Assembly: GCF_044647545.1 (NCBI RefSeq)
Contig: NZ_CP172818.1
DNA: 64,000 nt
Direction: 5' to 3' (one strand)
Origin: Escherichia coli
GTDB taxonomy: Bacteria > Pseudomonadota > Gammaproteobacteria > Enterobacterales > Enterobacteriaceae
Positions 1 through 48,645 of this stretch are shown piece by piece. The notes under the pieces are model-generated. The model saw only the letters and a list, made by a program, of their open reading frames with translations. It searched no databases and was not told the origin of the DNA. The position numbers and the translations under genes were made by a program. How positions within the stretch are numbered: the stretch's first letter is position 1; every line of letters begins with the position of its first letter.

Positions 1-1163
<1,163 letters not shown>

Positions 1164-1268
1164 TCACAACCCGAAGATGTTTCTTTCGACTCATCATCGT
1201 GTTGCGAAAATTTGAGAGACTCACGAACAACTTTCGTTGTTCAGTGTTTCAATTTTCAGCTTGATCCA

Positions 1269-1284
1269 GATTTTTAAAGAGCAA
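1269..1284 (-). promoter_or_regulatory. boxA-like antitermination element in the 16S-23S spacer
   Basis: Reverse complement reads TGCTCTTTAAAAATCT, matching the rrn spacer boxA consensus. Confidence 0.6.
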
Positions 1285-1356
1285 ATATCTCAAACATCAC
1301 CCGAAGATGAGCTTTGAGATATTAAGGCAGGTGACTTTCACTCACAAACCAGCAAG

Positions 1357-1432
1357 TGGCGTCCCCTAGGGGATTCGAACCCCTGTTACCGCCGTGAAAG
1401 GGCGGTGTCCTGGGCCTCTAGACGAAGGGGAC
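1357..1432 (-). tRNA. gltW: tRNA-Glu (UUC) in the 16S-23S spacer
   Basis: Reverse complement is GTCCCCTTCGTCTAGAGGCCCAGGACACCGCCCTTTCACGGCGGTAACAGGGGTTCGAATCCCCTAGGGGACGCCA, 76 nt, the E. coli tRNA-Glu sequence. Confidence 0.95.
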
Positions 1433-1507
1433 GTGTCGCAAGACGCCTTGCTTTTCACTTTCTATCAGACAATCTGTGTGAGCACTTCAAAGTACGCTTC
1501 TTTAAGG

Positions 1508-3049
<1,542 letters not shown>

Positions 3050-3492: not shown

Positions 3493-6066
3493 TTACTGGA
3501 CGGCGACAATCCGGTCTTCATTAACTTCCAGGCGAATCACTTTACCCGGAACCAATTCACCAGACAGTATTTGCTGTGCCAGCGGGTTTTCGATCTGCTG
3601 CTGAATTGCACGTTTCAGAGGACGTGCACCATAGACCGGATCGTAACCGTTCTCGCTCAGCAGTTTCAGCGCCTCGTCAGAAATGTGGATTTCATAACCA
3701 CGTTCTTCCAGACGTTTATACAGACGTTTCAACTGAATCTGCGCAATCGACGCAATGTGCTGTTCACCCAGCGGATGGAAGACCACCACTTCATCGATAC
3801 GGTTAATGAATTCCGGACGGAAGTTATGGCTTACCACACCGAGCACCAGCTCTTTCATGTGCGCATAATCCAGTTCACCGAAGCGTTCCTGAATCAAATC
3901 GGAACCGAGGTTAGAGGTCATAATGACAACCGTATTACGGAAGTCGACCGTTCTCCCCTGCCCGTCAGTCAGACGCCCATCATCCAATACCTGCAACAGA
4001 ATGTTGAAGACATCCGGATGCGCTTTTTCCACTTCATCCAGCAGGATGACGGAATACGGACGACGACGCACCGCTTCGGTCAGGTAGCCACCTTCTTCAT
4101 AACCGACATATCCCGGAGGCGCACCAACCAGACGAGACACCGAGTGTTTCTCCATAAACTCGGACATATCGATACGGACCATCGCCTCGTCGCTATCAAA
4201 CATAAAGTTCGCCAGCGCCTTACAAAGCTCAGTTTTCCCCACACCCGTTGGGCCGAGGAACAGGAATGAACCAATCGGGCGATTTGGATCCGCCAGCCCC
4301 GCACGGCTACGACGAATAGCGTTAGATACCGCATCAACCGCTTCGTTCTGACCAATAACGCGATGGTGCAGTTCTTGCTCCATACGCAGCAGTTTTTCGC
4401 GCTCGCTTTCCATCATGCGAGAAACCGGAATCCCCGTCCAACGCGCCAGCACTTCAGCAATTTCGGCATCGGTCACTTTATTACGCAACAGACGCATAGT
4501 TTTGCCTTCGAGCTGCGTTGCGGCTTCCAGTTGCTTTTCCAGTTCCGGGATTTTGCCGTATTGCAGTTCAGACATCCGCGCCAGGTCACCCACACGGCGA
4601 GCCTGTTCAATAGCGATTTTCGCCTGTTCCAGTTCCGCTTTAATGGTCTGCGTACCAGAAAGCGATGCTTTCTCTGCTTTCCACTCTTCTTCTAACTCGG
4701 AGTACTGACGTTCTTTGTCGCTCAGTTCTTCGTTGAGCATATCCAGACGTTTTTTACTGGCTTCATCAGACTCTTTCATTAACGCCTGTTGTTCCAGTTT
4801 GAGCTGGATGATACGGCGATCGAGTCGGTCGAGTTCTTCTGGTTTTGAGTCAATCTGCATACGAATGCTGGATGCTGCCTCATCGATCAGGTCGATGGCT
4901 TTATCTGGCAGCTGGCGGTCAGCAATGTAGCGATGAGACAACGTCGCCGCTGCAACAATTGCCGGGTCAGTAATTTGCACATGGTGGTGCAGCTCGTAAC
5001 GTTCTTTCAGGCCACGTAGAATCGCAATGGTATCTTCAACAGAAGGCTCGGCAACAAACACTTTCTGGAAACGACGTTCCAGCGCAGCATCTTTTTCGAT
5101 GTACTGGCGATATTCGTCAAGCGTCGTGGCACCTACGCAGTGCAATTCACCACGCGCCAGCGCCGGTTTCAGCATGTTTCCGGCGTCCATTGCGCCATCG
5201 GCTTTACCCGCGCCGACCATGGTATGTAATTCGTCGATAAACAGGATGACGTTGCCTTCCTGTTTGGCAAGATCGTTAAGTACGCCTTTTAAACGTTCTT
5301 CAAACTCACCGCGATATTTCGCCCCAGCCACCAGCGCGCCCATATCCAGCGCCAGTACGCGGCGGCCTTTCAACCCTTCGGGCACTTCGCCGTTGATAAT
5401 ACGCTGCGCCAGACCTTCAACGATGGCAGTCTTACCGACGCCTGGTTCACCAATCAGTACCGGGTTATTTTTAGTACGACGTTGCAGCACCTGAATGGTA
5501 CGGCGAATTTCTTCATCACGACCAATCACCGGATCGAGTTTACCCTGTTCGGCTCGTTCGGTAAGGTCGATGGTATATTTTTTCAAAGCCTGACGTTGGT
5601 CTTCAGCACCTTGATCGTTCACGCTTTCACCTCCACGCATTTGTTCAATCGCTTGAGTAATGTTGGCGGTGGTCGCCCCTGCTGCTTTCAGGATGTCGGC
5701 CAGCGTGCCGCGAGACTCAAGTGCCGCCAGAACGAACAGTTCTGACGAGATAAAGTTATCACCACGTTTTTGCGCCAGCTTGTCGCAAAGATTAAGAACG
5801 CGCACCAGATCCTGTGATGGCTGGACATCACCACCAGTACCTTCAACCTGCGGTAAACGATTTAATGCCTGATTGATATCTGTGCGCAACTGGCCAGCAT
5901 TTATGCCAGCGGATGTTAATAAAGGACTAACCGAACCCCCTTCCTGATTCAGCAGGGCGCTCATTAAATGAAGTGGTTCGATGAATTGGTTGTCGTGCCC
6001 GAGTGCAAGTGATTGGGCATCGGCAAGAGCAAGCTGGAATTTATTAGTAAGACGATCCAGACGCAT
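3493..6066 (-). CDS. clpB: ClpB disaggregase chaperone (AAA+ Hsp100), 857 aa
   Basis: ORF 3493-6078; translation begins [18 protein letters not shown] at the second Met; two Walker A sites ([16 protein letters not shown]). Confidence 0.97.
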
Positions 6067-6103
6067 AACTCCTCCCATAACGGATCAAAGTTGCTACTGG
6101 AGA

Positions 6104-6134
6104 TTAAATGAGGTCATCCCTCAATTATTCAAGG
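6104..6134 (-). promoter_or_regulatory. sigma-32 heat-shock promoter of clpB
   Basis: Minus-strand reading CTTGAA - 14 nt - CCTCATTTA resembles the sigma-32 -35 CTTGAA and -10 CCCCATNT consensus. Confidence 0.55.
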
Positions 6135-6195
6135 TTATTGACCAGATTAATGTGAAAAGAAAATCACGCGTACCGGATCGTCTTGATTCTTTAGG

Positions 6196-9436: not shown

Positions 9437-9491
9437 TTGACAGCGTGAAAACAGTACGGGTACTGTACTAAAGTCACTTAAGGAAACAAAC

Positions 9492-9539
9492 ATGAAACAC
9501 ACACCGTTTTTCTTCGCATTCTTTTTTACCTTCCCCTGA
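9492..9539 (+). CDS. pheL: pheA leader peptide (Phe-rich, 15 aa)
   Basis: ATG at 9492 encodes MKHTPFFFAFFFTFP-stop, with 7 Phe codons; preceded by AGGA RBS. Confidence 0.9.
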   Translation: MKHTPFFFAFFFTFP

Positions 9540-9586
9540 ATGGGAGGCGTTTCGTCGTGTGAAACAGAATGCGAAGACGAACAATA

Positions 9587-9616
9587 AGGCCTCCCAAATC
9601 GGGGGGCCTTTTTTAT
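9587..9616 (+). terminator. pheA attenuator terminator
   Basis: AAGGCCTCCCAAATCGGGGGGCCTTTTTTATT hairpin plus U-tract between pheL and pheA. Confidence 0.85.
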
Positions 9617-22609: not shown

Positions 22610-23488
22610 ATGAATAATCATTTCAAGTGTATTGGCATTGTGGGACACCCACGGCACCCCACTGCACTGACAACACATGAAATGCTCTACCGCTGGCTGT
22701 GCGCAAAAGGTTACGAGGTCATCGTTGAGCAACAAATCGCTCACGAACTGCAACTGAAGAATGTGAAAACTGGCACGCTCGCGGAGATTGGGCAACTGGC
22801 AGATCTCGCGGTAGTTGTTGGTGGCGACGGTAATATGCTGGGCGCGGCGCGCACGCTCGCCCGCTACGATATTAAAGTTATTGGAATCAACCGTGGCAAC
22901 CTGGGTTTCCTGACTGACCTTGATCCCGATAACGCCCAGCAACAATTAGCCGATGTGCTGGAAGGCCACTACATCAGCGAGAAACGTTTTTTGCTGGAAG
23001 CGCAAGTCTGTCAGCAAGATTGCCAGAAACGCATCAGCACGGCGATTAACGAAGTGGTACTTCATCCTGGCAAAGTGGCGCATATGATTGAGTTCGAAGT
23101 GTATATCGACGAGATCTTTGCGTTTTCGCAGCGTTCCGATGGACTGATTATTTCGACGCCAACAGGCTCCACCGCCTATTCCCTCTCTGCGGGCGGTCCT
23201 ATTCTGACACCCTCTCTGGATGCGATTACCCTGGTGCCCATGTTCCCGCATACGTTGTCAGCACGACCACTGGTCATAAACAGCAGCAGCACGATCCGTC
23301 TGCGTTTTTCGCATCGCCGTAACGACCTGGAAATCAGTTGCGACAGCCAGATAGCACTGCCGATTCAGGAAGGTGAAGATGTCCTGATTCGTCGCTGTGA
23401 TTACCATCTGAATCTTATTCATCCGAAAGATTACAGTTATTTCAATACATTAAGCACCAAGCTCGGCTGGTCAAAAAAATTATTCTAA
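22610..23488 (+). CDS. nadK: NAD kinase, 292 aa
   Basis: ORF track; GGDGN motif ([14 protein letters not shown]). Confidence 0.95.
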
Positions 23489-23507
23489 TTTTACGCCAGC
23501 CTCTTTA

Positions 23508-23545
23508 CTGTATATAAAACCAGTTTATACTGTACACAATAACAG
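23508..23545 (+). promoter_or_regulatory. Two tandem LexA operators (SOS boxes) in the recN promoter
   Basis: CTGTATATAAAACCAG (23508-23523) and CTGTACACAATAACAG (23530-23545), both CTGT-N8-ACAG. Confidence 0.9.
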
Positions 23546-23573
23546 TAATGGTTTTTCATACAGGAAAACAACT

Positions 23574-25235
23574 ATGTTGGCACAACTGACCATCAGCAAC
23601 TTTGCTATCGTTCGTGAGCTTGAGATTGATTTTCATAGCGGCATGACCGTAATAACTGGCGAGACCGGCGCGGGTAAATCTATTGCAATAGATGCCCTCT
23701 GTCTTTGTCTCGGTGGTCGCGCTGAAGCCGACATGGTGCGTACCGGCGCTGCTCGCGCTGACCTGTGCGCCCGTTTTTCTCTGAAAGATACGCCAGCGGC
23801 CCTGCGCTGGCTGGAAGAAAACCAGCTTGAAGACGGGCATGAATGTTTGCTTCGTCGCGTAATCAGCAGCGATGGTCGCTCCCGTGGTTTTATCAACGGT
23901 ACAGCGGTTCCTCTTTCACAACTGCGCGAACTGGGTCAGTTGCTGATTCAGATCCATGGTCAGCACGCTCATCAGTTACTCACCAAACCCGAGCACCAAA
24001 AATTCCTGCTTGATGGCTATGCCAATGAAACCTCTCTACTCCAGGAAATGACCGCACGTTATCAGTTGTGGCATCAAAGCTGCCGTGACCTCGCGCATCA
24101 TCAACAGTTAAGTCAGGAACGCGCCGCCCGTGCAGAACTGCTGCAATACCAATTAAAAGAACTTAACGAATTTAATCCGCAGCCCGGAGAGTTTGAGCAA
24201 ATCGACGAAGAGTACAAACGTCTGGCGAACAGCGGTCAATTGCTGACTACTAGCCAGAATGCATTGGCAGTAATGGCCGACGGTGAAGACGCAAACCTGC
24301 AAAGTCAGCTTTACACGGCTAAACAACTGGTGAGCGAATTGATTGGCATGGACAGCAAACTGTCCGGCGTACTTGATATGCTGGAAGAAGCTACCATCCA
24401 GATTGCTGAAGCCAGCGATGAACTGCGCCACTACTGCGATCGTCTGGATCTCGATCCCAACCGACTGTTTGAACTTGAACAGCGCATCTCAAGACAGATT
24501 TCGCTGGCACGTAAACATCACGTCAGCCCTGAGGCATTGCCACAGTATTACCAGTCGCTACTGGAAGAACAGCAGCAACTGGACGATCAGGCCGACTCAC
24601 AAGAAACGCTCGCGCTGGCGGTAACGAAACATCATCAGCAGGCACTGGAAACGGCGCGCGCGTTACACCAGCAACGCCAGCACTATGCAGAAGAACTTGC
24701 ACAGCTGATCACCGACAGTATGCATGCACTCTCTATGCCGCATGGGCAGTTTACGATCGATGTTAAATTTGACGAGCATCACCTGGGCGCTGACGGCGCT
24801 GATCGTATTGAGTTTCGGGTAACCACCAACCCAGGTCAGCCAATGCAGCCTATTGCCAAAGTCGCATCCGGTGGTGAGTTGTCCCGCATCGCATTGGCAA
24901 TTCAGGTCATCACGGCGCGTAAAATGGAAACCCCGGCACTGATTTTTGATGAAGTGGATGTAGGGATTAGCGGCCCAACAGCGGCAGTTGTCGGCAAACT
25001 GCTGCGTCAACTTGGCGAATCAACTCAGGTGATGTGTGTTACCCACCTGCCACAAGTCGCGGGATGTGGTCATCAACACTATTTTGTCAGCAAAGAAACC
25101 GATGGTGCGATGACAGAAACGCACATGCAATCCCTGGATAAAAAAGCGCGGTTACAAGAGCTGGCACGCCTGCTTGGTGGCAGTGAAGTCACACGTAACA
25201 CACTGGCGAATGCGAAAGAACTACTTGCGGCGTAA
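23574..25235 (+). CDS. recN: DNA repair protein RecN (SMC-like ATPase), 553 aa
   Basis: ORF track; Walker A GETGAGKS; coiled-coil middle region. Confidence 0.97.
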
Positions 25236-25383
25236 ACTTTTTTCCTGCTTCACGGTCAGAGTAAACAGCAAAACGCCGTAGGACCGGAAAGCAAAAGGTT
25301 TTAAAGTGATGAAAGGTCTATTATCATCGGCATATTACAGATGAGCCACGTACTGCTCGGGCCCGAAAAGGAATCAAATCACT

Positions 25384-27371: not shown

Positions 27372-27734
27372 GGGGCTGATTCTGGATTCGACGGGATTTG
27401 CGAAACCCAAGGTGCATGCCGAGGGGCGGTTGGCCTCGTAAAAAGCCGCAAAAAATAGTCGCAAACGACGAAAACTACGCTTTAGCAGCTTAATAACCTG
27501 CTTAGAGCCCTCTCTCCCTAGCCTCCGCTCTTAGGACGGGGATCAAGAGAGGTCAAACCCAAAAGAGATCGCGTGGAAGCCCTGCCTGGGGTTGAAGCGT
27601 TAAAACTTAATCAGGCTAGTTTGTTAGTGGCGTGTCCGTCCGCAGCTGGCAAGCGAATGTAAAGACTGACTAAGCATGTAGTACCGAGGACGTAGGAATT
27701 TCGGACGCGGGTTCAACTCCCGCCAGCTCCACCA
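27372..27734 (+). ncRNA. ssrA: tmRNA (transfer-messenger RNA)
   Basis: Begins GGGGCTGATTCTGGATTCGACGGG, contains the tag-reading frame GCAAACGACGAAAACTACGCTTTAGCAGCTTAA (ANDENYALAA-stop), ends GGTTCAACTCCCGCCAGCTCCACCA. Confidence 0.97.
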
Positions 27735-48162: not shown

Positions 48163-48645
48163 ATGATGGAACAGTCACTCATCCCACAGACACCGGTACT
48201 TCCACTGACCGCACAACGCACGGTAAAACGCGCCTTAACGCTGCTTGACCGACACCTGCGCGAAACAGGCGTGGCATTCACCTCCACTCAGGCTGCTCGT
48301 GACTGGCTGAAGCTGAAAATGGCGGGGCTGGAGCGTGAAGAATTTATGATGCTGTATCTGAACCAGCAGAACCAGTTGATTGCCCACGAAACCCTGTTTG
48401 CCGGTTCTATTAGCAGTACCGAGGTACATCCCCGTGAGGTGGTCAAACGCGCCCTGTATTTCAATGCAGCAGCAGTGATACTGGCGCATAACCACCCCTC
48501 CGGCGACACTACTCCCAGCCAGGCAGATAAGACTATAACGCAGCGTCTGGTGCAGGCGCTTCAGCTCGTTGATATCCGTGTCCCTGACCATCTGATTGTT
48601 GGTGGCAGGCAAATCTATTCGTTCGCAGAACACGGTCTGCTTTGA
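48163..48645 (+). CDS. yfjY: YfjY, RadC-like JAB/MPN domain protein, 160 aa
   Basis: ORF track; JAMM-like motif HNHPSGDTTPSQAD. Confidence 0.88.
   Translation: MMEQSLIPQTPVLPLTAQRTVKRALTLLDRHLRETGVAFTSTQAARDWLKLKMAGLEREEFMMLYLNQQNQLIAHETLFAGSISSTEVHPREVVKRALYFNAAAVILAHNHPSGDTTPSQADKTITQRLVQALQLVDIRVPDHLIVGGRQIYSFAEHGLL

Follow-up and report, generated by a model that had tools for sequence, protein, structure and literature searches.

The window, that is, the whole 64-kb stretch of DNA that was analysed, contains the junction between nadK and recN. It is E. coli chromosome: a 401-nt query around the boxes described below finds a match with 100% identity, and the region is present in 5,425 of 5,426 complete E. 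coli genomes. In all, 5,427 places match the nadK-recN junction, of which one belongs to a record with a plasmid label, and a single one of the 5,426 genomes is without the region. According to the RefSeq annotation of the identical E. coli region, the gene order is yfjD, grpE, nadK, recN, bamE, yfjF, ratA and smpB, and the two genes that frame the junction are placed as follows.

22610..23488, plus strand: coding sequence of nadK (NAD+ kinase), from the open reading frame list and RefSeq, with its stop codon TAA at 23486-23488.
23574..25235, plus strand: coding sequence of recN, 553 aa with the C-terminus ...KELLAA, from the open reading frame list, NCBIfam and RefSeq.

The RecN reading frame is full-length against the NCBIfam equivalog NF008121 (1067 bits with a cut-off of 418, E = 0, residues 1-553 of 553) and also scores 575 bits against TIGR00634 (cut-off 408). 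Between the nadK stop codon and the recN ATG lies a gap of 85 nt, TTTTACGCCAGCCTCTTTACTGTATATAAAACCAGTTTATACTGTACACAATAACAGTAATGGTTTTTCATACAGGAAAACAACT. For comparison we assembled 80 recN loci from Enterobacteriaceae, one genome per species, whose RecN proteins are 83-98% identical; nadK and recN are adjacent with a gap of 84-87 nt in 76 of 81 sequences.

The sequence-only reading of this DNA had placed two LexA operators 6 nt apart at 23508-23545, and the outer limits of both 16-nt cores proved exact, with the gap at 23524-23529. Their distance from recN had been given as 30-65 bp, which is close to the actual position of the cores, as these extend from 66 to 28 nt ahead of the ATG at 23574. 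As 20-mers, the two sites read as follows.

23506..23525, plus strand: LexA box 1, TACTGTATATAAAACCAGTT, core CTG..CAG at 23508-23523; 25.7 bits, rank 1; covers part of the -35 hexamer and all of the promoter spacer.
23528..23547, plus strand: LexA box 2, TACTGTACACAATAACAGTA, core at 23530-23545; 20.3 bits, rank 2; overlaps the -10 hexamer and the probable transcription start.

By the motif rule CTG-N10-CAG, box 1 has the form CTGT-N8-CCAG and box 2 is a perfect CTGT-N8-ACAG. Box 2 is the sole match to the latter pattern in the window, where 0.77 matches are expected by chance, and a search with the 20-nt LexA consensus allowing up to 3 mismatches gave no match in the window, box 1 having 4 mismatches. 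Because such bare pattern searches are uninformative, a weight matrix was needed, and we built it from 16 published E. coli LexA boxes with recN left out (PMC3009722 Table 4) and applied it to both strands of the 64-kb window. A scan of this kind had been proposed as the check on the two operators, and it ranked boxes 1 and 2 as the top two of 127,962 positions, with scores inside the range of the training sites (16.4-28.0 bits). Together with a weaker third site that adjoins box 2, the boxes occupy ranks 1, 2 and 4 (rank 4 being the third distinct site), so that the top three distinct matrix matches of the window all fall within 60 bp. On the same matrix their values of the heterology index (HI) are 2.1 for box 1, 5.9 for box 2 and 8.8 for box 3, with a training maximum of 8.7 and a published cut-off for LexA boxes of below 15. 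In 300 simulated 64-kb sequences, generated as first-order Markov chains with the dinucleotide statistics of the window, sites of at least 16 bits arose at a mean of 0.10 per 64 kb and sites of at least 20 bits at 0.003. Table 4 of PMC3009722 gives exactly the 20-mer of box 1 as its recN site, and the supplement of PMC6015884 shows both boxes. We regard the observation of two operators as confirmed and as lying far beyond chance. The best matrix match outside recN, CCCTGTATTTCAATGCAGCA at 48452-48471 (13.4 bits), was set aside, as it is located within the coding ORF 48163-48645 and most likely arose by chance.

The promoter of recN and its ribosome-binding site are interleaved with the boxes.

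23504..23509, plus strand: recN -35 hexamer TTTACT, from the promoter scan; all six columns invariant in 73 distinct sequences.
23526..23531, plus strand: recN -10 hexamer TATACT, from the promoter scan, after a 16-nt spacer; all six columns invariant across species.
23562..23565, plus strand: Shine-Dalgarno sequence AGGA of recN, 8 nt before the ATG; 23562-23564 invariant, 23565 an A in 71 of 73 sequences.

The arrangement TTTACT-16 nt-TATACT (23504-23531) is the only sigma-70-like promoter in 23300-23700; its -35 hexamer begins just 15 nt after the nadK stop codon, and transcription would be expected to start at about 23538. Measured centre to centre, boxes 1 and 2 are 22 bp apart, which corresponds to about two helical turns, and boxes 2 and 3 are 18 bp apart, and the ends of the three boxes precede the recN ATG by 48, 26 and 8 nt.

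The third site differs from the other two in both strength and composition.

23546..23565, plus strand: putative weak LexA box 3, TAATGGTTTTTCATACAGGA, core ATG..CAG at 23548-23563; 16.1 bits (in reverse orientation), third-best distinct site.

Box 3 has 2 nt in common with box 2 and covers the Shine-Dalgarno sequence. In its form ATGG-N8-ACAG the right half alone fits the LexA rule, as ATG stands where LexA prefers CTG, and its score is borderline at 16.1 bits against 16.4 bits for the weakest training site; in most other genera the score is about 12 bits. The same three 20-mers are reported to be listed in the compilation of Fernandez de Henestrosa et al. 2000, where their HI values are about 5.2, 9.4 and 11.5. 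Three SOS boxes are also counted for E. coli recN in PMC10714372. The operator had been described as double, and this stood with respect to boxes 1 and 2; the count of two did not hold, given the weaker third site next to box 2.

The whole arrangement is deeply conserved in Enterobacteriaceae. In 77 of 81 sequences the ends of the boxes are at distances of 48, 26 and 8 nt from the ATG, and in the other four all three are shifted jointly by 1 nt while the 22- and 18-bp spacing stays constant, and therefore the shift reflects an indel between box 3 and the ATG. Invariant in the 73 distinct sequences are CTTTACTG, which comprises the -35 hexamer and the left half of box 1, TATACTG, which comprises the -10 hexamer and the left half of box 2, the ACAG of box 2 and the ATACAGG of box 3. 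TACTG is thereby invariant in both box 1 and box 2, as is the CTGT of box 2, and the CAG in the right half of box 1 varies slightly (A in 65 and G in 71 of the 73). Substitutions in boxes 1 and 2 cluster in the interiors (23515, 23535-23537 and 23540-23541) and at the junctions (23524-23525 and 23546-23547), a pattern of variation that recognition by LexA predicts. Over the 63 columns from 23503 to 23565, 56% are invariant and the mean majority frequency is 0.94, as against none of 124 invariant and a mean of 0.56 at the fourfold-degenerate recN sites of the same genomes, which served as the neutral yardstick. The flanks, comprising the 14 nt at 23489-23502 and the 8 nt that separate the ATG from the Shine-Dalgarno sequence, resemble the neutral sites much more closely. 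A weak fourth LexA-like site, e.g. TTCTGATTTTGCATCCAGCA, of 10-13 bits is found in nine Enterobacter-group loci (L035, L036, L039, L042, L044, L048, L052, L062 and L067); it lies 71 nt upstream of the recN ATG, spans the nadK stop codon and is absent from E. coli.

We interpret the locus as the LexA-repressed sigma-70 promoter of E. coli recN with three adjacent LexA operators, and we put the probability of this reading at roughly 0.93. It draws on the positions and scores of the sites, their overlap with the promoter hexamers and their deep conservation, all of which are observed, and on the LexA dependence and strong induction known from the literature. As long as the DNA is undamaged, each box would hold a LexA dimer, and together the dimers would cover about 60 bp (23506-23565) from the -35 hexamer to the ribosome-binding site, with those on boxes 1 and 2 expected to exclude RNA polymerase from both promoter hexamers, and box 3, located in the early transcribed leader, possibly providing an extra block just downstream. 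Upon DNA damage, RecA on single-stranded DNA would stimulate self-cleavage of LexA and leave the operators empty, whereupon the promoter would fire and produce a large burst of RecN. The simultaneous occupancy of the three boxes and genuine LexA binding at box 3 are features of this scheme that we infer, as is any cooperativity between dimers, which should not be assumed because none was found in vivo at the lexA double operator, for which no formal biochemical test exists (PMC7440846).

Published data bear on several parts of this scheme. The gene is among the top UV-induced genes (PMC3009722); ciprofloxacin raises the recN transcript by log2 4.6 and the RecN protein by log2 6.8, and induction by mitomycin C is about 100-fold, while a LexA-defective strain reaches 128-fold. 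In Reg-Seq, a repressor footprint at recNp disappears with H2O2. A chromosomal recN-lacZ fusion was derepressed only 2-3-fold in a lexA deletion strain (PMC6015884). For the regulation of recN by LexA, PMC10714372 and PMC7440846 both cite Rostas 1987, and recN is counted together with lexA and the colicin genes among the few multi-operator SOS promoters (PMC7440846). None of this do we count as evidence against LexA control of recN, and the caveats concern details. The proposal that the two operators impose tight SOS repression is supported by the strong scores, the promoter overlap, the published induction and the loss of the repressor footprint on SOS induction, and it was incomplete in that the operator is a triple one. 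The locus had also been presented as known biology, correctly so, as the recN operator has been described in the literature with its three boxes included.

We next consider box 3, for which the evidence can be read in more than one way. The operator could be functionally double, with box 3 not a real LexA site and its sequence conserved for translation initiation, through the Shine-Dalgarno sequence and the leader. The left half ATGG in place of CTGT would fit such a role, as would the retention of A23548 in 71 of 73 distinct enterobacterial sequences though a C would bind LexA better, the nearly invariant T-run and CAT in the interior, unlike the interior of box 2, and the AG that the CAG of box 3 shares with the Shine-Dalgarno AGGA; the score of about 12 bits in most genera and the failure of FIMO to report the third box in Salmonella (PMC8072944) point in the same direction. 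However, box 3 ranks third among the distinct sites of the 64 kb, its invariant ATA before the CAG matches a LexA half-site and lies outside the Shine-Dalgarno sequence, and the distance between boxes 2 and 3 is constant whereas that from box 3 to the ATG is changed by indels. The C that restores CTG at position 23548 is found in just two species (L032 and L038), and the literature counts three recN boxes both for Salmonella (PMC8072944) and for E. coli (PMC10714372).

The RNA-based alternatives that we tested for box 3 find no support. A leader hairpin that would sequester the Shine-Dalgarno sequence by pairing GGUUUUUC with GGAAAAC shows no two-sided changes and hence no covariation, paired cells amounting to 93.6% as against 93.8% in shuffles, and the fold of the recN leader, with z = -0.44, lends it no support. 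An upstream ORF starting at the ATG of box 3 was likewise rejected, as this ATG is without a Shine-Dalgarno sequence and its frame is not conserved, being out of frame in most species and shifted in four, with a length of 13, 22 or 32 codons. Neither the upstream ORF nor the leader hairpin explains the conserved A23548. On balance we hold a merely double operator to be unlikely, although it deserves to be taken seriously.

The conservation of box 3 nevertheless has a peculiar character, in that TG and ATACAG(G) are invariant while the interior appears more conserved than LexA binding alone would explain. As A23548 and the T-run are near-invariant despite saturated synonymous sites, selection for a weak site or a second role is suggested. 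Box 3 might accordingly be more than a weak LexA operator, either a deliberately weak site filled only with the help of the box 2 dimer, or a sequence with a second, undescribed role in the leader, e.g. in translation control near the Shine-Dalgarno sequence; we put this forward as a speculative and rather doubtful extension of the LexA-repressed triple operator.

A different kind of explanation involves a second repressor. DnaA has been proposed to act at recN via a DnaA box that overlaps a LexA box (PMC6015884), and the proposal is based on a dnaA(A345S) mutant in which recN-lacZ expression is 2-3-fold higher, an effect additive with loss of LexA (PMC6015884). We did find a match to TTATNCACA with 1 mismatch, TTATATACA, on the minus strand at 23509-23517, inside box 1, but matches with at most 1 mismatch number 67 in the window, or about 1 per kb, so that one at this place is unremarkable. 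Moreover, most species have lost the 2-mismatch DnaA candidate of box 2, and PMC6015884 reports no DnaA binding assay on recN DNA. Repression by DnaA through such a box is not supported by the sequence and strikes us as improbable at this promoter.

The position of the operators directly behind nadK allows yet another reading, namely that the tandem LexA array serves mainly as a roadblock insulating recN from read-through of the constitutively expressed nadK. The tight junction of 84-87 nt from stop to ATG in 76 of 81 sequences would suit this role, as would the outcome of a strict terminator scan, which called no terminator in the nadK-recN gap. Yet the E. coli nadK end carries a stable terminator-like hairpin with a T-tract (23465-23509), which would limit read-through without LexA.

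23465..23501, plus strand: terminator-like hairpin, GGCTGGT...GCCAGCC with an inner A/T stem; RNAfold -14.5 kcal/mol, z = -6.4; function putative.

The z value is taken against shuffles of the non-coding arm, the two arms being formed by the last nadK codons and the first intergenic bases, and the hairpin is followed by the T-tract TCTTTACT (23502-23509), which overlaps the recN -35 hexamer. The element has the appearance of a terminator for nadK, with a T-tract that runs into the promoter behind it, although the strict terminator scan did not call it and RNAalifold gave no consensus for it. It is lineage-specific: Escherichia has a strong hairpin, Enterobacter and Klebsiella have a moderate one, and Kosakonia is among the genera that lack it, the mean z over 77 distinct species sequences being -1.1. 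We found no published support for a roadblock role, which is pure inference, and we consider it very improbable as the main function of the array. Finally, the idea that the LexA matches are chance occurrences in AT-rich intergenic DNA, with the region at 32% GC and a bare CTGT-N8-ACAG expected 0.77 times per window, can be dismissed as next to impossible, since a matched AT-rich background yields sites of at least 16 bits at a rate of 8e-6 per position and, in 2 Mb, not a single one that reaches 20 bits, yet three sites stand here within 60 bp and are deeply conserved while synonymous sites are saturated.

The LexA-repressed triple operator is best placed by comparison with known systems. The recN promoter/operator of K-12 (Rostas, Morton, Picksley and Lloyd 1987, cited by later work) is the same locus, its third box having been counted in subsequent compilations of SOS boxes, and boxes, -35, -10 and Shine-Dalgarno sequence are identical in the K-12 strain TG1. 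In Salmonella enterica, recN has three SOS boxes at the same distances of 8, 26 and 48 nt from the ATG, with HI of 12.97, 7.72 and 8.82, respectively, and 39-fold induction (PMC8072944). The Salmonella locus of our comparison set (L017) has the same layout as the window, and differs in the box interiors, e.g. in box 2, which reads TACTGTATTTAAATACAGTC, and in its third box, which starts TCATGG rather than TAATGG and scores 12.2 rather than 16.7 bits (uniform-background matrix). The E. coli lexA promoter is likewise overlaid by LexA boxes in tandem, at a distance of about two helical turns; their centre-to-centre spacing is 21 bp, as against 22 and 18 bp in recN, and there are two boxes of about equal strength rather than three. 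Colicin operators, which very tightly repress genes whose constitutive expression would do harm, are plasmid-borne, with two overlapping boxes downstream of the promoter. Unlike these, the recN operator is chromosomal and has one box per promoter hexamer plus a third downstream. As far as the citation of Lloubes et al. 1991 in PMC7440846 conveys, the colicin genes have adjacent or overlapping double LexA operators, and the 2 nt shared by recN boxes 2 and 3 are a comparable feature.

The feature is thus the already described recN promoter/operator of E. coli, with nothing new in it, and we see it as a regulatory landmark that anchors the window at the E. coli nadK-recN junction and not as a discovery. 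What the present analysis adds is that the operator is a triple one and that Enterobacteriaceae have kept the whole 60-bp promoter/operator block, down to its exact spacing. The need for three operators at recN is a small but real question for modelling the timing of SOS induction, given that published work found no cooperativity at the comparable lexA double operator (PMC7440846).

Within E. coli the block varies little. TG1 differs from the window at one position over the 111 nt of 23480-23590, an A/G polymorphism at 23570, which falls in the stretch from the Shine-Dalgarno sequence to the ATG and belongs to none of the boxes. Of 5,426 E. coli records, 1,802 have exactly the 81 nt of the window at 23496-23576; among the remaining matches listed, most are one base off. 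One rare strain, E. coli SI-NP020 (L083), has a T to C change in the interior of box 1 (23513) and an A to G change after the CTGT of box 2 (23534).

A few further observations concern the surroundings of the promoter. The KELLAA end of RecN (25224-25235) resembles an ssrA-type tag, and about 1.5-2 kb further downstream are smpB and the tmRNA gene; ClpXP is known to remove RecN via C-terminal signals (PMC10714372). In the gap between recN and bamE (smpA), at 25236-25383, there is a promoter-like match at 25300-25327, and in Vibrio recN and smpA are co-induced and their synteny is conserved (PMC5963079). Searches with Rfam placed a partial rRNA operon (5' part of 23S, tRNA and 16S) on the minus strand at 1-3049, the sRNA RyfD at 6047-6185, a Phe leader at 9491-9616, tmRNA (ssrA) at 27372-27734, followed by an apparent integrated island, and a tRNA on the minus strand at 57625-57697. 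The ORF at 48163-48645 lies in this island downstream of tmRNA, and its product has a RadC-like HNHPSG motif.
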